DNA of 64,000 nt from Alphaproteobacteria bacterium (GTDB lineage Bacteria > Pseudomonadota > Alphaproteobacteria > SP197). Of this stretch, positions 13,765 to 54,992 are shown one piece after another. The notes below the pieces were generated by a model, which saw only the letters and a list, made by a program, of their open reading frames with translations, did no database searches and was not told the origin of the DNA. Location: the NCBI GenBank assembly GCA_964291415.2, contig OZ219917.1, positions 160,001 through 224,000 of the forward strand. The letters are read 5' to 3'. The first letter of the stretch is position 1. Each line of letters begins with the position of its first letter. The position numbers and the translations under genes are program-made.

Positions 13765-13950
13765 GTCACTCAAGCAGTGAATCGAACTGGTTGGTCGCAG
13801 GAGTTTCGAGTGGCGCACATTCCGGCTGAACCATCGTCCACGGTGCGCCCGGTCCATTGGCAACTCGACGATACGCACCGCGGGAATGTCGAGCGGCATC
13901 ACCCTTCCAGCGTCGAGATGAGGGACGACATCAGGCCGATGGTCGGTGCA
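13765..13950 (-). pseudogene. Decayed copy of the 3' half of vapC
   Basis: Aligns by eye with 14729-14990: GCAGTG..TCGAAC.GGTTG.TCGCAGG, TGGCGCAC.TTCCGG.TGA, GCGCCCGGTCCAT, GGCATCACCCT, GACATCA.GCC.ATGGTCG. Confidence 0.8.
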
Positions 13951-14060
13951 GTCAATGGCGGCAGAGAATTGGAGTTGCCGAGAATCGAGCCTTGTGTCGT
14001 GATCGGCTGTGATTGAATGTCGGTGTCGCGCAGTACCAACTTGACGTCGAAGGGGGTCTC

Positions 14061-14336
14061 ATGACGGTCAAGTCCTCAATCTCGCTCACCGACGAGCAGC
14101 ACGCCTTCGCCAGGGCACTGGTCGAGGCCGGGCGCTATTCGAGCTTGAGCGCGGTGCTGCAACAAGGCGTCGACCTGCTGCGTCAGAGAGTGGACGCCGA
14201 GGAACTCGAGACCGCGGCGTTGCGAGAGATCCTGTCCCGGCGGCGCAAGGGCGCGTTCGTCAATGCGGATGCGATGGACGCGCGGCTCGCTGGAATGGCT
14301 GCCAGCAAACGCCGCGCCCATGGCCTTCCGTCTTGA
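14061..14336 (+). CDS. parD: ParD-like RHH antitoxin
   Basis: SISLTDEQ..LVEAGRYSSLSAVLQQGV. Confidence 0.85.
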   Translation: MTVKSSISLTDEQHAFARALVEAGRYSSLSAVLQQGVDLLRQRVDAEELETAALREILSRRRKGAFVNADAMDARLAGMAASKRRAHGLPS

Positions 14337-14667
14337 GTTCCCGGTCGAGGCCGAACGCGACTTCGGGCTCATGTTCGACCATCTCCTTCGGAGCTATCTC
14401 GGCTTTGGCGAAAGCCTGGAGAGCGCCCTCGATCACACTGAGGCGCGGATTGAAGAGATCCGCGCGTCCGCGGACCGGATCCTGGCCGCCCCCTACCGCG
14501 GCGAACGCCATGACAAACGTCTGCCCGGGCTTCGGCATCTCGCCATCGGACGGACAATGTTCTGGTTCGACGTCGATGACGGCCGGGAGGTAGTTCGCGT
14601 TCTGGCGGTGTTCTTCGGCGGCGAGGATCATGTCCGACACATGCTGGCCCGGCTTCTCAAGGAGTGA
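14320..14667 (+). CDS. parE: ParE/RelE family toxin
   Basis: AERDF..I..SADRILAAPYRG..LPGLRH..VRVLAVFFGG; overlaps parD. Confidence 0.85.
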   Translation: MAFRLEFPVEAERDFGLMFDHLLRSYLGFGESLESALDHTEARIEEIRASADRILAAPYRGERHDKRLPGLRHLAIGRTMFWFDVDDGREVVRVLAVFFGGEDHVRHMLARLLKE

Positions 14668-14729
14668 ACGCGGGGCCGGCGACGACAGGACGGCAAGGCC
14701 TGGGTGCGGCGCGGACTCGTCCGGGAAAG

Positions 14730-15167
14730 TCAATTCGGCAGTGTTTCGAACGGGTTGATCGCAGGGACTCCGAGCGGCACAAAATGGCGCACGTTCCGGG
14801 TGAGAATCGTAAGGTCGCGTACGCTTGCCGTCGCCGCGATGGCGAGGTCAGCAAAGCCGGGGGACTGACCCGTGGCGCGCGCCCGGTCCATCAGCAGCCC
14901 GGCAAAACGCGCCGCAGGAACATCGAACGGCATCACCCTGGCACCGTAGAGGTGAAGAACGACATCAAGCCAATGGTCGAGACGGTCGGCACGTGCAAGG
15001 CTGCCCGACCTCCGCAACTTGGCAATACCATTGACGACCTCGGCCACGGTGATCGTCGACAGGAACAGTTTGTCGGAATGCGTATCCAACCAATCGGTCA
15101 GCGTCGCGTCACGTTCACGACGGCCGGGTGCCCTGATTGAAAGAACGTTCGTGTCCACCAGGAACAT
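14730..15167 (-). CDS. vapC: VapC PIN-domain toxin
   Basis: MFLVDTNVLS, STITVAEV, DLAIAATA, LTRNVRHF. Confidence 0.92.
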   Translation of the reverse strand: MFLVDTNVLSIRAPGRRERDATLTDWLDTHSDKLFLSTITVAEVVNGIAKLRRSGSLARADRLDHWLDVVLHLYGARVMPFDVPAARFAGLLMDRARATGQSPGFADLAIAATASVRDLTILTRNVRHFVPLGVPAINPFETLPN

Positions 15168-15176
15168 CGCAAGCGC

Positions 15177-15419
15177 CTACAGAGCGATGTCTCGCAGCGA
15201 ACTCGAGTCACGCGGTGGCAGATCACCCTCTTCCAGTTCCGAAACAGCGAGAAGGCGACCGAACGACGGGACTTGGCAAAGGCGGTTCCATTCGTCGAGG
15301 CCAACGAGCACGGCCCGGGGCTGTCCGCGATTGGTGATGATGGCTGTCTCACCTTGAGCGGCTCCTTCTACCAGGGCCGACAGCTTGGCTTTGGCCTCTC
15401 TCAACTGCACCTTCCGCAC
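15177..15419 (-). CDS. Phd/YefM antitoxin (GTG start after AGGAG)
   Basis: VQLREAKAKLSALVE..GETAIITNRGQPRAVL. Confidence 0.9.
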   Translation of the reverse strand: MRKVQLREAKAKLSALVEGAAQGETAIITNRGQPRAVLVGLDEWNRLCQVPSFGRLLAVSELEEGDLPPRDSSSLRDIAL

Positions 15420-43225: not shown

Positions 43226-44488
43226 ATGAGAGACCGTAACTTGCTATTCTACGAAGAGGATTTGGACGCGCAGCTTCGAGGGCGACAGGAAACTGTTCCC
43301 GAAGCTGTTGACCGGATACCGAAAGATCAATTCCTAGTCTCAAACGATCAGGAATTGGTCGACCATGTGGTCGCTAGAATGACGGTAGAGCCACTCGTTC
43401 TACGCGAAAACGCAATGGTCATGAGTCAAAACGAAACGCAGGTGGATGTTTCTGGCGATTCTATGCGGGTGTTTATGTCCAATCGCAGTGGACCACTTTA
43501 CGTTCCGGGAACTCGCGTGGACATCGACATTCCCTTCACGGGAGAAGAGTGGATTTTCCAGTATCGGACCAACCCGTGGTCCTTGGTGCTCCCGCGCGCG
43601 GAAGTCCGACAGGGTCAATTGCGCCTCTGTATTTCGCAGCCGCACGACGCCGATCCCGCCAATTTCAGGTCGATTTACGATCGGGAGTTGAATCTGATTC
43701 GAGAGTACGTGGACCACTCACACAAGCAGGTGGTTGATTATAACGAGAGTCTGCCCAACTTGGTGCAGCGGTCGGTCAATAATCGTCGTGACCGACTTGG
43801 ACGTCATAGTAACATCGCGGGCTTGCTTGATATACCCTTAGCCACGCAACCTGGCGCACCTTCCATTGAGCCAGTGAAGGTGGAAATCCGGCGTCCTCCA
43901 GCTTTGCCCCAGGTGCCGAAGGCGGGTCTTATGCCAGAGCCGGGGATCACAGACGAGACCTACGGGCATATCCTTCAGTTCATTCGACACCAAGGACGCA
44001 CGTTTGAGCGGACGCCCAACACCTATGCCGTGCACGGTGAAGAAGACTTGCGCAACATCATATTGGCGCAGTTAAACGGGCACTTTCGTGGTGATGCCGT
44101 GGGTGAGGTGTTTCGAGGTAACGGCAAGACAGACATCTGCATCGAACAGGACAATCGCGCGGCCTTCGTGGGAGAATGCAAGATGTGGACGGGTGCAGCA
44201 GGCCTCATCGTAGCGATGGATCAGCTTCTCGGCTACCTGACTTGGCGTGATAGTAAAGCCGCCTTGATCATGTTCAACGTGAAGAACAAGGACTTCACCA
44301 AAGTCCTCAACGCAGTGCCCGAGACGCTTCGCGCTCATCCACTGTTCCTGCGTGATTTGGCTTGTTCCGAAGCCGGGGAATGGAGGGTGGAGATGCGTAG
44401 CGTCGAGAATGAGGGGCGGCGTGTCACTGTTCAGGCGTTTGTCTTCAACTTGTTCCAGGCTAGTGGTGTACGGACACGAGCGCTCTAA
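43226..44488 (+). CDS. Hypothetical protein with a C-terminal PD-(D/E)xK restriction-endonuclease-like domain
   Basis: EEDLR..GEVF..GKTDICI..FVGECKMW..QLLGYLTWRD. Confidence 0.7.
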   Translation: MRDRNLLFYEEDLDAQLRGRQETVPEAVDRIPKDQFLVSNDQELVDHVVARMTVEPLVLRENAMVMSQNETQVDVSGDSMRVFMSNRSGPLYVPGTRVDIDIPFTGEEWIFQYRTNPWSLVLPRAEVRQGQLRLCISQPHDADPANFRSIYDRELNLIREYVDHSHKQVVDYNESLPNLVQRSVNNRRDRLGRHSNIAGLLDIPLATQPGAPSIEPVKVEIRRPPALPQVPKAGLMPEPGITDETYGHILQFIRHQGRTFERTPNTYAVHGEEDLRNIILAQLNGHFRGDAVGEVFRGNGKTDICIEQDNRAAFVGECKMWTGAAGLIVAMDQLLGYLTWRDSKAALIMFNVKNKDFTKVLNAVPETLRAHPLFLRDLACSEAGEWRVEMRSVENEGRRVTVQAFVFNLFQASGVRTRAL

Positions 44489-44513
44489 GGTCTGAACATT
44501 TCAGCGACGAGCG

Positions 44514-45010
44514 CTAGGTTGTTGCTGTGTTGTTGATGCTGTCAACGGATGAGACCATTCTGAAGCTATGCGCCGTCACTAGGCCTTGCTTCACCTTCTT
44601 GAATTCGCTGAACACCCTGAGCGCGAGTGCGAGATAATCCTCTTGTGGCGGGCCAAGTTGGTCCAGAATAGCTCTGCAGACCGCAACGACGTTCGCAGTG
44701 GTGTTGGGACATTTTGCGGAAAGTGTTAGGCACGTGCTGTTGAGGTCGGCGAACAAAACTGGCGCCTGCGCCCCCGGGATCAGCGACGACCGACGCGTCA
44801 ATTGGATGGAGCGCACCCGCTGAGGCCGATGGTTTCTTCCCCAGTCCGAAGTCCTCGCCATGATCTACCTCCCGCGTGCAGAACCCGTGCATCACGAACC
44901 CCACATCTATTGGTCATGACGATAGTGTTTAGTCACCTGCAGAGACCAGGCGGATGGCGCATCTGTCACCAGTACGGTATTCAAAGAACGCATTCAACCA
45001 ATACATCGCA
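44514..45010 (-). pseudogene. Possible decayed SagB/ThcOx-type nitroreductase
   Basis: PSASAGALHPID at about 44797-44835; a LFAD..LSAKCPN segment in another frame; in-frame stops upstream. Confidence 0.4.
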
Positions 45011-45364: not shown

Positions 45365-46324
45365 ATGCCCAAACATCAGACTACTCGCGAGCCTCCGGAA
45401 TTCAATCACATTGAACCGGTAGAAGGAGATCTACTCTCCGATGAACCTGATGCCTTGCTCCGCACCCACCGGAAGTTGCAACTTGCAATTCTTCGACTTC
45501 GGAAGAATGTGGATAAGGGGAATGCCCTTATCGACTTCCGCAACTGCGAAGAAATAGATCCTGGCGGTTTGCTGCTAACAATGTATGCAGTCTTTCCGCT
45601 TCTCAGAGATAACCAGCTGTCTCTCTGGTATCGGAGTCGCGGCGCTGTAAGGGCGTATCTCCTAGAAAACATAGACCATTATCGTCAACGACGATCCGCC
45701 CATAGCAATAATCGCTCAGACGACTTTCTACTTCGTCGAATAAAAACAAGAGAAGCTATGGTCAATGACCTCAATCAGTATGCTTCATCCCTTAGACAAG
45801 CATCTCTTATCTCGAGTCGCGAAGTCGCAATATGGGAAACACAAGTTGGCGAACTCACAACCAACGGATTTCAACATGGAAACGCTCTCAGGGACGATCC
45901 GCAAGAACGCGATCTAGTTATGAATCTTGTAGCCGGCAAGGCATATGAAGAAAAAGGTAGAGTTGAAATGGGTGTACTAGACTTTGGCGCCGGCATTCCT
46001 CGTGTAATTGAGCGAGTGGCACCTGATACAGTGCGTGCAAAAGGAGACGGTCAATTAATAGCGTACGCGCTCAGAAAAGGAATAACTTCCCGAACGGTTA
46101 TCGAGAATCAAGGAGCGGGGCTTCATGGAATTGTGGATGCCGTCAAGGAAAATGGGGGGCGTCTCCTACTCTTCTCTGGCGGAGGCTTGGTATGCGTAAA
46201 GAATGGTCGTGTCTCAAGCAGAAAAATCAATGACAGGTGTAACCAACCGACACTAGAAGGCACCTTGGCAATTATAATTCTTAATTTACAGGGGGGAGTG
46301 GCGCAATGTCACAAACAATATTAG
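45365..46324 (+). CDS. STAS-like + GHKL (HATPase_c) protein, anti-sigma-factor-type kinase without an H-box
   Basis: IDFRNCEEIDPGGL (STAS-like); N box ELTTNGFQHG; G1 VLDFGAGIP; G2 GITSR..GAGLHGI; C-terminal GTL. Confidence 0.85.
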   Translation: MPKHQTTREPPEFNHIEPVEGDLLSDEPDALLRTHRKLQLAILRLRKNVDKGNALIDFRNCEEIDPGGLLLTMYAVFPLLRDNQLSLWYRSRGAVRAYLLENIDHYRQRRSAHSNNRSDDFLLRRIKTREAMVNDLNQYASSLRQASLISSREVAIWETQVGELTTNGFQHGNALRDDPQERDLVMNLVAGKAYEEKGRVEMGVLDFGAGIPRVIERVAPDTVRAKGDGQLIAYALRKGITSRTVIENQGAGLHGIVDAVKENGGRLLLFSGGGLVCVKNGRVSSRKINDRCNQPTLEGTLAIIILNLQGGVAQCHKQY

Positions 46325-46611
46325 CTTCTGAGATTGTGGATCACCGTTTTCCACCAGAGGAAGGAGCAGAGTTGGCAAGAACATTGCTTCAACAGGACTT
46401 AGAATGGGACGATCTCACCGTCGATCTTAAGGGTCTACCAGCCAGCCTTCTGATTTCCGCTTTCTTTAATGGCTTTCTTGCAGTCATTACTTCCGACCGA
46501 CCGGAGCTTCTGCCGAAGGCGAAGAAAATACGATGGCAGTTGGACTATGACTTCCAAAGGGAGAATGTCGCTCGGTGGATGAGAGGGTTTTCGGGCATCC
46601 AATTGGAGTGA
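46306..46611 (+). CDS. STAS-like (DUF4325-type) small protein
   Basis: EEGAELA..LTVDLKGL..LISAFFNGFL; 19-nt overlap with the kinase gene; SD GGGGGAG. Confidence 0.75.
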   Translation: MSQTILASEIVDHRFPPEEGAELARTLLQQDLEWDDLTVDLKGLPASLLISAFFNGFLAVITSDRPELLPKAKKIRWQLDYDFQRENVARWMRGFSGIQLE

Positions 46612-46617
46612 TGTCAG

Positions 46618-47472
46618 ATGACTTGTCATGTTGCGTTTTCGAGTGACGTTGGTGCAGTTTTGTTTTCGGACAGCCAGCTGTCTACGGACAAGACAGGATA
46701 TCACGGCTTTCAGAAGCAGTTCGTTGGCGACGATTTCCTGCTTGGGGGGTCCGGAAACAGTTTGGTTATCGAAGAGGTCTTTAAATCGCTGAGAGATTCT
46801 ACAACGGGGGTGTGCACTGTCGATGGCGGGACAGTGGCGAATCACATTGTAGCGTTTTTGCAAAGGAACGTTAGTAGGCCGGCTGCTGCCGGCACAAACT
46901 TTATCTTGATATGCCTAAATCAGAGCGGCAAGCCAAGAATTAGGATTCTATACCCTTCCACGTTTGACTTTTTCATCTCAAGAGATCACTTCGGCACGCT
47001 GGGATCTGGATCTGAGCTCGTGAGTTCTGCGATTGAGAGAGATAGAATGCTGGGCCTTTTTCGACAGCCCTTAGAGTTGGTAGACATGATAGTGGCGGGA
47101 GAAAATTATCTTGATGCTGCCACGAAAAGTCTCACCGTTGATTCACAGTTCACTGTGGGAGTGCTCCGATCGAAAAGAGCGTATCTAATGGGTGATGTGC
47201 GAATTACAATGCAATATGCACCACCAGCGATCGCAGCGAAGTGGAATAGCGCTTCGAAATTGTATGAAGCAATTCTGGCTCATGCTCAACAGATTCGAGG
47301 AGAAATTCGAGAAGCACAGCGAGTGTTGTCCAAAGTTCAAGTTGCTCAATTAGACAAAGCTGCAGTTTCCGCAATTGAGGCAAGCCAAGTCTCAGTGAGT
47401 CAAAATAGACAGGCGCTTCATGCAAAAATCGAAAGTTACTTAAATTGGTATGATAGGTTGCTGAACCGCTGA
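46618..47472 (+). CDS. Proteasome-beta/HslV-like Ntn threonine protease with a C-terminal helical extension
   Basis: After Met removal: Thr1, Asp17 (FSDSQ), Lys32, GGSG at 42-45, G128-S129-G130; the last 90 aa or so are amphipathic helices. Confidence 0.8.
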   Translation: MTCHVAFSSDVGAVLFSDSQLSTDKTGYHGFQKQFVGDDFLLGGSGNSLVIEEVFKSLRDSTTGVCTVDGGTVANHIVAFLQRNVSRPAAAGTNFILICLNQSGKPRIRILYPSTFDFFISRDHFGTLGSGSELVSSAIERDRMLGLFRQPLELVDMIVAGENYLDAATKSLTVDSQFTVGVLRSKRAYLMGDVRITMQYAPPAIAAKWNSASKLYEAILAHAQQIRGEIREAQRVLSKVQVAQLDKAAVSAIEASQVSVSQNRQALHAKIESYLNWYDRLLNR

Positions 47473-51249: not shown

Positions 51250-52110
51250 TCACAAATCTATTTTATCGTTGACGAGCCGGAATCAGAAAGCGCCATCGTC
51301 TGTACACCACGCTTGTTCGCAGAATCGCAGCAAAATTTCTGATCACCATGCGTTCCAACTGCACTCTGTGTATCCTCAGTGCATCCGGCAAAACATCGTA
51401 TCGGTAAAAGTTCCAGTCTCTGATTGAAGGATGTCCCGCTCTAAATCTTTGGATCAACTGTCTGCCTCACCAATGTAGAAGAGTTTCTTGTTTGTATCAA
51501 TCAACATGTAAATGACATTTTCTGCTCCGATCTCGGATTCGAAATCGTCGCGTGAACACCAGTCCTGTTTGTAGATACGAATGGTGTTCTTGTTGGCCAA
51601 TTCGTCATCGATCCGTTTAAGGGTTGGCGAGTATGTGAGTCGACGGAATAACTCCGGGAATGTCGGAGTTTGAGTGTAGTGGGCGGTCATGCGAACCGTC
51701 TTCGACTCTTTGTCGAATTCGATGTCGAGGAATTCCCAAAATGGTATATCCCTTTCGATGTCGGAGTCGGTATCTGGCCGCAGACGGCTTTCGATGTCGC
51801 GCATGAAAGTCATAAGGAATACTTCTTTAAGTTCATTCTTTAAATCATCACCAAACCACATGCGGTAAACCTTGTTGGCGCGATTTTTGGGCCAAGTACA
51901 CGTTACCTGACCGGCGTATCTTTTCTTGTTAAAGTTGATCGAGAATGTCGATCCTTCGTCCTCCTTTCCCATTAGACCGGGGAAGACCTCGTCAAGGTTC
52001 CAGACTTTGCATACCCACATGGGAACAGTCGTTCCCTTATGTTGAAACAAGGAGGGTCAACCTTCTTGCGCCAGAGTGGAAAATCGACATTGGGTTCGTT
52101 CTCTTGGCAT
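51250..52110 (-). CDS. Protein with a C-terminal GIY-YIG nuclease domain, with frameshifts
   Basis: SD GAGGTG before ATG 52110; NVIYMLID..FYIGEA..QRF..H..LERMVI. Confidence 0.7.
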
Positions 52111-52909
52111 TTAACACCTCTCAGCGATGGGGGTCGCAGGCTAACTGCTTAACCCGACCGCACTCCGGTCAAACAAACACACTTCGAGAACGCCTTTGAC
52201 GCCGTTGATATGAACAGGGTTGGTGATGTATCGAACTGAGGCTCACTCGGCACTCTTGAAGCAACAGCTTAGGAGAGCCGCCAACCTGAGGCGACAGTGA
52301 TAAGACTGTTCCGCAGGTCATGGGACCAGCACTTGGTGCCGCCAGCCTCCTAATACGGGGCTGGAGAAGGTGCGGGTCTTGGACATGGCGGTGGGCGCCG
52401 GTGCCCAAGAGGAACATTCAATCGCGAGCATGAGTCGAGTAGTTGCTCGCCTCGACTCTGCGGCGTTCAGGATTGACCGAGAACTGCCGGGCAACCGGGA
52501 ATTCCAAGAGTACATCAGCCTTTTGTTGCTTGGTTGGATAGCACCTCGGAAACCGAGCAACTTGTCGCCTGGCTGGAATGTATCGATGGTCGGTTGGCGA
52601 CTGTCGTACGTATCCTGGCAGTTCGTATTCCGGGTTTCTCTGACATAGCACCCATATAGGGACGCCCGAAATTTGGTCAACTCAACAATCAATACCAAAA
52701 TGGAAGTGACTGTCTTCCAAAGTCGCAGTTAGTCTTCTGGAGTCAACAGCGAATAATCTTCAACACTCTGAAAACGGCGTGCATGGCAGTTAGATTGCCC
52801 GTTCAGGTAGTTGTTTGTCGCCGCTTAAGAGCGAAATCACTTTCCTGAAGGTCGCAGCCTCAGCTTGCGTTGACGCCTCGTCCAGCTGACGAATGGGAAG
52901 CAGGTGGAA

Positions 52910-54992
52910 TCAAGTGGAGAGGCCGAGGTCGCGTTTCTTGCTGGCGGCCCAGGCCTGGATGATGCGGTCGGCGATCATGGCCATGAGGGCCATGGATCCG
53001 CCGGCGATGACGCCCTGGCCGAACTTGGCGTTGGTGAGGCTGTCGTAGACCCACTGGCCGAGGCCCTTGGTGCCGACGAGGGCGGCGATGACGAGCATGG
53101 CGAGGGCGAACATCACGACCTGGTTGAGGCCGACCATGATCTCGGGGATGGCCAGCGGGAGCTTGACCTTCCAGAGGATCTGCCTCTCGGTGCAGCCCAT
53201 CATCCGGGCGGCCTCGATGGCGACCGGGTCGACGTGGCGGATGCCGTGCTCGGTGTAGCGGATGGCCGGCACGATGGCGTACATGATGATGGCGAGCAGC
53301 GCCGAGAAATCGCCCACCAGGAACACCATCACCACGGGGATGAGGAAGACGAAGAGCGGCATCGTCTGCAGGGTGTCGTTGATCGGCCGCAGGACGGCGG
53401 AGACGCGGTCGTTCTGCGCCGCCCAGATTCCTAAGGCCCCGCCGGCCACGAAGCAGATGATGACCGAGGTGGCGGTGAGATAGAACGACAGCATGGCCCT
53501 GTGGCCAGGCGCCGCTCACCAGCATGAAGATCATGCCGAGGAAGGCGAAGAGGGCAACCCTCCAGCCGCCGACCTGGAAGGCGATCAGGGTGACGGCGGC
53601 GATGAAGACGGGCCACGGCGTTCCGGACGAACCGTAGTAGAAGAGGATGCCCAGGAGCGCTGTGGCGACGGCGGCGCGCCAGCCGCCCAGCCGTGCCGCC
53701 AGGGAGCCGATGGCCACCAGGATCATCCAGTAGATGACGGACGCCAGCGCCGTCATCTCGAAGCCCCACGAGGTGGGCCGGGCAATCCTCTCGAGGCCCG
53801 CCTTCATGGGCAGCATGAAGAAATAGAGCGTATAGGTCTTGATGGCGTCCGTGGTGTCGAAGAAGTTGCGGGTGAACCAGGAGACCGCGGTGTTGAGTCT
53901 CTCGGCAGGATCGATGATCCATGCCTCGGGATAGGCGCTGAACACCGGCACCGCCCACGAGAGCAGCGTGCCGGCGGCGACCGCCGCTGCCATGGAGACA
54001 AGCATGGGATGCCGCGCGATGTAGTTGCCCGAACGACGCACGTGGATCTCTCCCGTTCGTTCGGCGAAGCCGCGGCTGATGCGGTCCATCATCATGGCGA
54101 TCAGCACGATGACCAGTCCGGCGAGGAGACTCTGGCCGGTCTGGGCCTTGCGCATCGTGGAGAGCACCTCCCAGCCGATATCGGCGAAGCCGCCGATGAT
54201 GGCGGCGATGATCACCATGGCGAGTGCCGCCATGATGGTCTGATTCACGCCGATCATGATCGTGTGCATCGCTGCCGGAACACGCACCATGAAGAGGAGC
54301 TGGAAACCGTTGCAGCCGGACATCTGACCGCTCTCGATGACATTGTCGGGAACCCTTTGGAGCCCCAGCATGAGGTTCCTCACCATGGGCGGGCTGGCGT
54401 AGATTGCCGAGGCCACCATGCCGACCACGGGCCCGATCCCGAAGAGAATGAGGATGGGAATGAGATAGGCGAACGTCGGCACCGTCTGCATCACGTCCAG
54501 CGTCGGTTCGATGACGCGCCGGGCCCAGCGGAACTGGAAACCGAGCAGTCCCATGATGAACCCGATCATGACCGAAAGCGGCACGGACATGCAGACCAGC
54601 GCCAGGGTCGACATGCTCTCGTCCCAGTATCCGACGACCACCATGTAGAGAAGCGAGGCGATGCAGAAGGCGGAGAGACGCCAGCCTTTGGCGGCGTAGG
54701 CGATGATCGCCACGATGGCGATCGTGACCGGCCACGGCGATGTCTGCAGCACGGCCTGGATTCCCCTCATCGGCCATTCGAGGGCATCGGAAATCAGGCG
54801 GAAGAGCGGCTTGAAGTTGGCCGTGAACCAGTCCATCAGAAACTCGAGGCCGGCCTCGATGGGAAGAATCCAGCCCGTGGGATACTTGACGAGCCATTTC
54901 GCGTCGTCACGCAGGACGAGGCAGAGGATCGCCAGGACGCCGAAGACCAGCCAGACCAGGAGCCTGGGCGGCAGCAGGCGCGCCGGGTTCAC
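52910..54992 (-). CDS. proW: Glycine betaine/choline ABC permease (ProW-like, duplicated domain); 1-nt frameshift at about 53498
   Basis: DVMQTVPTFAYLIP / DTLQTMPLFVFLIP, two EAA-loop regions, GVNQTIM / GLNQVVM. Confidence 0.88.

Follow-up and report, generated by a model that had tools for sequence, protein, structure and literature searches.

A conserved three-gene cassette joins a predicted STAS-GHKL kinase to a proteasome-family protease and may work like VapKSC

Three coupled genes lie in a low-GC island

We analysed three adjacent genes in a 64,000-nt stretch of contig OZ219917.1 (assembly GCA_964291415.2, positions 160,001 to 224,000 of the forward strand), which comes from an alphaproteobacterium of the GTDB lineage SP197. 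This whole 64-kb stretch is referred to as the window, and all coordinates are positions within it. The trio lies on the + strand and encodes a predicted STAS-GHKL kinase (gene 1), a small protein with an invariant serine (gene 2) and a predicted proteasome-family threonine protease (gene 3). We compare it with VapKSC, in which VapK is a STAS-GHKL kinase, VapS is a STAS antitoxin and VapC is a PIN toxin (Chambers et al., EMBO J 2026; PMC13373217, drawn on in part throughout). By analogy, we lean slightly towards the reading that the trio resembles the toxin-antitoxin defence system VapKSC in how it works and that a threonine protease of the proteasome family replaces the PIN nuclease. The features of the trio are as follows.

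45365-46324, + strand: gene 1 (K component), 319 amino acids (aa), a fused STAS and GHKL Ser/Thr-kinase-like protein
45395-45685, + strand: STAS-like N-terminal domain of gene 1, residues ~11-107
45716-46297, + strand: predicted GHKL (Bergerat-fold) kinase domain of gene 1, SpoIIAB/RsbW type, residues ~118-311
46306-46611, + strand: gene 2 (S component), 101 aa, in the DUF4325/VapS position, a probable STAS-like switch or antitoxin
46456-46458, + strand: Ser51 codon tcc of gene 2 (in LLISAFFNGF), candidate phospho-acceptor, invariant in the family alignment
46618-47472, + strand: gene 3 (effector), 284 aa, predicted proteasome-family N-terminal nucleophile (Ntn) threonine protease with a C-terminal extension
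46621-46623, + strand: Thr2 codon of gene 3, predicted N-terminal nucleophile from homologue starts and structural alignment
47224-47460, + strand: C-terminal helical hairpin of gene 3, residues ~203-281 of the predicted model

A preliminary description of this locus, made from the sequence without database searches, had reported three tightly coupled genes, and the list of open reading frames (ORFs) agrees with it exactly. The last 19 nt of gene 1 (46306-46324) are also the first of gene 2, and a gap of 6 nt (46612-46617) lies between genes 2 and 3. Shine-Dalgarno-like sequences stand 5' of the start of gene 2 (GGGGGGAG, 46291-46298) and of gene 3 (GGAG, 46605-46608). The gene spacing and start signals indicate that gene 3 is translationally coupled and is not a separately regulated operon. 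The upstream gene, which encodes PDC-S54, is followed by a terminator-like hairpin (44502-44527), and the trio therefore looks like its own transcription unit. A promoter scan found no strong sigma-70-like site close upstream of gene 1.

The AT-richer island in which the trio had been placed is borne out by measurement. GC content is 0.47-0.56 across ~43-53 kb, compared with 0.63-0.70 in both flanks; the exception within the island is 48-49 kb, at 0.65. As a check of the island borders, we looked for tRNA genes in 38-58 kb and for convincing direct repeats flanking the island, and found neither.

Gene 3 is predicted to be a proteasome-family threonine protease

The gene 3 family comprises 33 homologue clusters. 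In an alignment of 27 sequences, D18, K33, G129-S130-G131 and S171-L-T-V are invariant. The AlphaFold2 model of gene 3 has a predicted local distance difference test score (pLDDT) of 91.3 and a predicted template modelling score (pTM) of 0.89. Foldseek with this model returned 1016 PDB chains at E<=1e-3, which were led by 20S beta subunits and included Anbu. With VIA-align, the Z scores were 18.0 for Anbu, 15-17.7 for 20S beta subunits, 14.8 for PrcB, 13.9 for HslV, and 13.3 and 12.3 for BPH. Like Anbu, the 20S beta subunits, HslV and BPH, gene 3 has the Ntn alpha-beta-beta-alpha fold and the Asp17/Lys33/GSG catalytic set.

Residue 2 of the model pairs with residue 1 of the mature Anbu, beta-subunit, HslV and BPH chains, so Thr2 would be the nucleophile once Met1 has been removed. 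HslV likewise matures by Met removal, without a propeptide. The homologues are consistent with this prediction, as 21/27 start with MT followed by C, V or L; the other six have later starts and are probably truncated gene calls. At the sequence level, gene 3 is linked to phrog_1040 ('peptidase HslV family', 5.5e-5). The only Pfam match was LPD39, which is not significant (E 0.089; 12.9 bits, where the cut-off is 27), and no PIN match appeared in the Pfam scan. NCBIfam gave no match, and a search against PDB sequences returned nothing meaningful. Together, the modelled fold, the invariant catalytic residues and the starts of the homologues uphold the earlier assignment of gene 3 as an Ntn threonine protease, predicted here to belong to the proteasome family.

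Gene 3 is unlike Anbu, the 20S beta subunits, HslV and BPH in that it has a two-helix C-terminal hairpin of ~80 residues and sits in a kinase/STAS operon. DSSP assigns helices to residues 209-242 and 247-281 of the predicted model, and W209, E229, Y278 and D279 of the hairpin are invariant. The Anbu alignment extends to residue 245, and the long C-terminal helix of gene 3 recalls helix H5 of Anbu as it appears in the parts of the published descriptions used here. Judging from the model, the hairpin may have a role in oligomerisation or partner binding. Fuchs et al. (2021) reported 22 new clusters of proteasome homologues, some with C-terminal coiled coils (PMC8665760), and gene 3 may be a member of one of them. 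The words 'operon', 'kinase' and 'STAS' are absent from the text of that paper (PMC8665760).

Gene 1 is predicted to be a STAS domain fused to a SpoIIAB/RsbW-type kinase

Twenty-five homologue clusters make up the gene 1 family. The Bergerat-fold motifs are invariant in 22/22 aligned relatives: the N box (E163/N167/H171), G1 (D206-x-G208), G2 (N248-Q-G250-x-G252) and G299-T300. We compared an AlphaFold2 model of gene 1 (pLDDT 76.6, pTM 0.81) with 48,161 PDB representatives using VIA-align. The best fold match of residues 118-311 was SpoIIAB (1l0o_A; Z 14.0, root-mean-square deviation 2.5, 138/141 residues). Further matches were UsfX (8ih8_C, Z 11.7), the RsbW domain of Rv1364c (11.6), RsbW (6m36_A, 11.2) and SiaB (10.6). 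Topoisomerases, the CA domains of histidine kinases, Hsp90 and MutL scored Z ~8-10.

The N-terminal part, residues 11-107, matched the anti-sigma antagonist TM1442 (1sbo_A; Z 7.9, root-mean-square deviation 3.0, 89 residues). Foldseek matched it to MlaB (6.5e-3) and SpoIIAA (4.2e-2), and a gene 1 profile searched against PDB sequences found MlaB, in the register expected, with an E of 0.14. These models indicate that gene 1 is a predicted fusion of a STAS domain and a SpoIIAB/RsbW-type GHKL Ser kinase. The STAS-like N-terminus and GHKL boxes read earlier from the sequence therefore stand, and so does the lack of an H-box: a DHp/H-box helical hairpin domain would not fit among the predicted helices and strands. 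In the register suggested by the model, D65-P66-G67-G68 lies at the phospho-Ser site of SpoIIAA, with G67 and G68 invariant and D65 and P66 conserved in at least 90%. Because this site has no Ser or Thr, the STAS domain of gene 1 itself would not be a canonical substrate.

The similarity to SpoIIAB and RsbW extends to the general logic, in which a kinase is paired with a STAS protein, although the SpoIIAB/RsbW modules differ from the trio in that gene 1 has its own N-terminal STAS domain and the output is a protease. SpoIIAB, UsfX and RsbW act as anti-sigma factors and bind the output themselves; SpoIIAB, for example, holds sigma F. Since the kinase domain of gene 1 is closest in fold to these three proteins, the trio could also be an anti-sigma-style switch. 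Here the kinase would sequester the protease, unphosphorylated gene 2 would displace the protease from it, and phosphorylation would reset the switch to off. The extra, non-phosphorylatable STAS domain of gene 1 could then serve as an internal pseudo-partner. Two points argue against this arrangement and make it unlikely in our view. The cassette encodes no PP2C phosphatase to recycle phosphorylated gene 2, and in CapK and VapK, the only characterised STAS-GHKL fused kinases, the STAS partner and not the kinase holds the output (PMC13373217). As had been noted from the sequence, neither a cognate sigma factor nor a PP2C phosphatase is among the three cassette genes; Pfam gave no matches on the scanned neighbours.

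Gene 1 has no match in Pfam or NCBIfam. It does match a family of functionally uncharacterised phage proteins, phrog_3364 (6.4e-20). In PADLOC, gene 1 has a match to SspF (0.0066) and a weak, partial match to DrmA (5.5e-6). We rejected a DISARM reading of the latter. The same part of the DrmA model (positions 95-393) matches a HATPase-DUF4325 fusion protein (L007) at 2.1e-30, which indicates that the match reflects a shared N-terminal module and not the DISARM helicase.

Gene 2 carries an invariant serine and occupies the DUF4325 position

Close relatives of gene 2 form 23 clusters, and a profile searched against 1.84 billion representatives recovered 192 relatives at E<=1e-3. Ser51, within LLISAFFNGF, is invariant in 25/25 aligned sequences. 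The reported phospho-acceptors are S48 of VapS, S54 of CapS and S58 of SpoIIAA (PMC13373217). Ser51 lies at a comparable position, and we infer that it is equivalent to them.

Genes that occupy the same place in related cassettes can point to the identity of gene 2. In eight other genomes, STAS-GHKL genes stand directly 5' of genuine DUF4325 genes, and hhalign aligned the gene 1 family with these kinase genes across both domains at a probability of 98.4% (E 1e-14, 265 columns). Because gene 1 is kin to kinases that precede true DUF4325 genes, gene 2 occupies the DUF4325 slot. Language-model neighbours, which count as leads by the search method's own rules, point the same way: for gene 2 and for a 69%-identical relative, DUF4325 clusters were nearest (0.87 and 0.85; 177-188 shared features). 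From its sequence and its place in the operon, gene 2 is probably STAS/DUF4325-like. The preliminary description had stated that GHKL and DUF4325 pairs on islands are usually followed by a PIN nuclease, and coupling of DUF4325 to PIN is indeed in print (PMC5499597, used in part).

Other searches with gene 2 returned little. There was no NCBIfam match, the ESM Atlas held no model for gene 2 or its relative P0062, and PDB sequences gave designed coiled coils only, with nothing meaningful among them. A scan of the window's own genome (G000) with the DUF4325 model, PF14213, found none. A comparison by hhalign of a 135-sequence gene 2 domain alignment with the STAS domain of gene 1 was non-significant (probability 2.5%).

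Some gene 2-like proteins are larger than gene 2. Among the best 150 of the 192 relatives, 56 are longer than 140 aa. Their N- and C-terminal extensions are mostly unrelated to one another, save for one group of six. One is a fusion with an RNase_T exonuclease (1.5e-13), and another has a weak nucleoside 2-deoxyribosyltransferase match; some of these fusions may be gene-calling artefacts. Hidden Markov models of genes 1 and 3 match none of the best 150 of the 192 representatives.

The trio is a conserved and mobile cassette

A search with gene 3 recovered loci in one genome (L001, Candidatus Foliamicus, Gammaproteobacteria) and on three metagenome contigs (L003-L005). The neighbourhood comparison proposed in the preliminary description finds the protease beside the kinase and small-protein pair every time: in 5/5 readable loci (the window, L001, L003, L004 and L005), the order is kinase, small protein, protease, with the genes overlapping or abutting. 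Gene 3 of the four other loci is only 33-52% identical to that of the window, and conservation of the order at this divergence indicates more than chance. The gene 3 frame of L004 is lost after ~residue 140, and the L005 contig stops within gene 3.

As a proxy for co-occurrence across the wider families, we asked whether clusters shared an equal-sized longest source contig. By this proxy, 16/25 gene 1 clusters are shared with a gene 3 cluster, and 13/23 gene 2 clusters are shared with a gene 1 or gene 3 cluster. The source names among the relatives include a Polyangiaceae metagenome-assembled genome, Sorangium sp., Novipirellula sp. and Gammaproteobacteria, and thus cover Gammaproteobacteria, Myxococcota and Planctomycetota. 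Within close range the distribution is sparse, as gene 3 was found in 0/100 related genomes and gene 2 in 0/400 other genomes of the phylum.

Defence genes neighbour the trio in 2/5 loci (the window and L001), and 1/5 has an integrase-like neighbour (L003, where the adjoining ORF is integrase-like by eye). The neighbours in L001 are DndB/DpdB-like, GIY-YIG and weak HEPN genes, a type III restriction-enzyme fragment and an insertion sequence (IS). The patchy spread, the low-GC island, the integrase-like, IS and defence neighbours and the source names suggest an accessory, transferable module. We conclude that the trio is a real, conserved, mobile cassette found in defence-island contexts.

A few kb from the trio in L001 lies a 454-aa ORF (13826-15190, - strand) whose N-terminus is Ntn-hydrolase-like by eye. 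It has no Pfam or PADLOC match at E<=0.001.

The cassette resembles VapKSC with a different effector

In VapKSC, VapS binds and neutralises VapC, and the S48E substitution abolishes both activities (PMC13373217). Phosphorylation of VapS by VapK frees the PIN toxin and leads to phage protection. The operon gives ~2 logs of protection against phage Bas42, which is lost in VapC D28A, VapS S48A and VapK F54A (PMC13373217). The trio shares with VapKSC the three-gene order of kinase, small Ser-bearing protein and effector. It also shares the STAS plus GHKL architecture of the kinase, a likeness drawn from the published description and not from sequence comparison. The small partner is ~100-116 aa and has an absolutely conserved Ser near residue 50. 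Neither system includes a phosphatase or sigma factor, and VapKSC is often near defence genes (PMC13373217). The difference lies in the effector, which in the trio is a 284-aa proteasome-family Thr protease instead of a PIN nuclease. Because its third gene is no PIN nuclease, we do not assign the trio to VapKSC itself. Profile searches of PDB sequences with genes 1 and 2 returned no chains of 9Z7O.

CapK and CapS provide a second comparison. CapK is an HTH-STAS-GHKL kinase activated by single-stranded DNA, and CapS is a STAS-winged helix-turn-helix (wHTH) repressor phosphorylated on a conserved Ser (PMC13373217). Like this pair, the trio has a STAS-GHKL kinase followed by a substrate of STAS type with a conserved Ser, where the STAS fold of gene 2 is putative. 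Unlike gene 1, CapK has an extra N-terminal HTH, and the wHTH DNA-binding domain of CapS represses a downstream operon. We judge gene 2, at 101 aa, too short to carry an added wHTH domain.

The trio had been put forward as an architecture without a name. This no longer holds, as kinase, STAS protein and effector now form a named system, VapKSC (PMC13373217), and the trio is therefore best described as an effector-swapped variant and not as a new architecture. We found no description of a protease-armed variant in the literature, leaving aside the supplementary datasets of PMC13373217, which possibly list other effectors. In the text of that paper, 'proteasome' does not occur, and 'protease' refers to CapP, a TEV-cleavable tag and lysis-buffer inhibitors.

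A protease-releasing switch is a possible mechanism

The switch logic of the preliminary description, in which phosphorylation gates the release of an effector, is plausible. Experiments have since demonstrated it for the PIN-armed VapKSC (PMC13373217), which suggests how it could operate here. In a resting cell, the gene 2 protein would bind the gene 3 protease and keep it inactive, perhaps by occluding the active site or by preventing the assembly of a ring. A cue from infection or damage, by analogy single-stranded DNA as for CapK and VapK, would activate the gene 1 kinase. The kinase would phosphorylate Ser51 of gene 2 and so release the protease. Once free, the protease would degrade host or phage proteins, and growth or phage production would stop. 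We infer each binding, phosphorylation and phenotype step, as well as the nature of the cue. What the analysis itself shows is the fold identity of kinase and protease, their catalytic motifs, the invariant Ser, the conserved operon and the island context. The specific proposal that the protease is an executioner of abortive-infection or toxin-antitoxin type, held by a phospho-switchable STAS-like antitoxin and released by a cue-sensing kinase, is tentative and stands a little short of even odds. When a complex of the three proteins was predicted and scored on gene 2, a control in which chain 1 had been substituted reached a score no lower than that of the true complex; we count this prediction neither for nor against any reading.

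Several results weigh against the reading that the trio works like VapKSC. The first group concerns gene 2, which has no Pfam match at E<=1. Only 2 of the best 150 of its 192 relatives reach PF14213, with a best E of 0.0044. In hhalign, the gene 2 family alignment matched a DUF4325 set at a non-significant probability of 3%, and the 135-sequence domain alignment matched the same set at 1.9%. Against 19 DUF4325 domains, the latter alignment reached 11.7% (pairwise E 0.0026), which is also non-significant; within it, the Ser51/Phe53 region overlies the conserved Ser-Phe motif of DUF4325. Of the earlier description of gene 2 as STAS-like with a Ser near the phospho-Ser position, the Ser stands and is invariant, but the STAS fold is unconfirmed.

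The same results favour a reading in which gene 2 is no kinase substrate: gene 1 would be an ATPase or regulator, gene 2 would serve the protease as an adaptor or in its assembly, and Ser51 would be conserved for its part in the structure. Fusion of gene 2-like domains to many unrelated segments, such as the RNase_T exonuclease, also fits an adaptor. On the other hand, gene 1 is nearer in fold to SpoIIAB-type Ser kinases (Z 14.0) than to other GHKL ATPases (~8-10), and the invariant Ser has nearly the same position as the phospho-acceptors of VapS, CapS and SpoIIAA (PMC13373217). We consider an adaptor role for gene 2 the least probable of the alternatives weighed here.

The second group of results that weigh against a VapKSC-like defence role concerns context. 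Gene 3 occurs in none of 72,556 plasmids, where gene 1 matched a histidine-kinase fragment only, and genes 1 and 3 are absent from IMG/VR viral contigs. The defence context is supported by only two long loci. No system model in PADLOC-DB 2.0 fits the trio, and genes 2 and 3 have no matches in it. The preliminary description had proposed PADLOC as a check of novelty, and the DrmA and SspF rows of gene 1 are the only matches.

Absence from the plasmids and viral contigs searched would also suit a regulatory protease of stress response or housekeeping, in which the kinase and STAS proteins would adjust, under some stress, how certain cellular substrates are degraded. STAS/kinase switches classically act in stress and development, and the authors of the CapKS work call the line between immunity and stress response fuzzy in their Discussion (PMC13373217). 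Such a role is at odds with the patchy distribution (0/100 relatives, 0/400 phylum genomes), with the low-GC island and its integrase-like (by eye), IS and defence-gene neighbours, and with the scatter of source names across Gammaproteobacteria, Polyangiaceae/Sorangium and Novipirellula. We therefore find it improbable that the trio is a stress or housekeeping system.

The third group concerns the protease itself. HslV requires HslU, and no ORF for HslU or another AAA+ unfoldase lies in or next to the cassette, which in this respect is unlike HslUV. To our knowledge, protease function has never been demonstrated for the standalone proteasome homologues Anbu and BPH. We also know of no roles for Anbu and BPH as yet.

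Related cassettes carry other third genes

We surveyed 301 genomes of the same class for PF14213 and found 20 positive, one of which was left out afterwards. At ten loci (L011, L014-L017, L019, L020, L022, L023 and L025), a third gene accompanies the STAS-GHKL and DUF4325 genes. The STAS-GHKL proteins are ~340-395 aa, the true DUF4325 proteins 107-127 aa and the third proteins 137-182 aa. The third protein has an N-terminal hydrophobic segment in 10/10 of these loci. In three of them (L022, L023 and L025), the kinase gene was either truncated or not seen. The gene sets of L011 and L020 have no PADLOC match.

These cassettes share the three-gene order of the trio, and their kinase is homologous to gene 1 (probability 98.4%, as above). 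They are unlike the trio in that their second gene is a true member of the Pfam family DUF4325 and the third encodes a small protein with a hydrophobic N-terminus. The DUF4325 cassette may be an undescribed membrane-effector relative of VapKSC. Counting the published PIN nuclease, the protease and the small protein with a hydrophobic N-terminus, it appears that at least three kinds of third gene go with one kinase/STAS sensor.

If the VapKSC-like reading is true, the kinase-STAS 'K-S' sensing module, demonstrated in 2026 with a transcriptional repressor and with a PIN toxin as outputs, gains an effector of entirely different chemistry. The STAS-GHKL/STAS pair would then be a general plug-in sensor that arms nucleases, proteases and probably membrane proteins, and the cassettes with small membrane-like third genes would support systematic effector swapping behind one sensor. 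For the protease, it would mean the first physiological role for an orphan clade of bacterial proteasome homologues, and a testable function for a small, widely scattered family. Release of a phospho-sensitive inhibitor would be a new way of gating a self-compartmentalising or Ntn protease. As the architecture itself is already precedented, the main interest would be a proteasome homologue acting as an immune or toxin effector.

The survey also recovered single proteins of 346-455 aa with PF14213 near the C-terminus (L006-L010, L013, L021, L024 and L026). Two of these were scanned against Pfam: L007 matches HATPase_c_2 and DUF4325, while L009 has, in addition, a weak match to a MarR-type HTH. 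On plasmids of Novosphingobium (L028) and Vibrio alfacsensis (L029), a STAS-GHKL-related hypothetical gene is followed by a gene annotated as 'STAS-like domain-containing protein'. In L029, a small hypothetical gene lies directly 3' of the pair, and a MazEF pair adjoins.

Other genes in and around the island

The gene upstream of the trio (43226-44488, + strand, 420 aa) matches PDC-S54, a candidate defence protein in PADLOC, at full length (E 8.7e-123, model positions 1-407/410). This ORF has a weak match to phrog_9664 and none in Pfam or NCBIfam.

Downstream of the trio, the ORFs at 47.9-49.1 kb look by eye like pieces of an IS transposase, and this stretch has the flank-like GC content of 0.65. 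The right half of the island had been described as full of frameshifts. This was checked only in part, and eight short + strand ORFs in shifting frames at 49.6-51.4 kb agree with it. Pfam on ten right-half fragments gave a sole row, Sde2_N_Ubi_yeast (E 3.7e-4), below the cut-off. A 198-aa ORF at 51454-52050 (- strand) has no match in Pfam, NCBIfam or PADLOC. The source genome consists of 5 contigs and has an estimated contamination of 8.99%. At the right island border (52860-54992, - strand) is what appears by eye to be an ABC-transporter permease. Two ORFs in different frames, 52860-54992 and 52910-53494, overlap here, and this points to a frameshift or to an error in the assembly.

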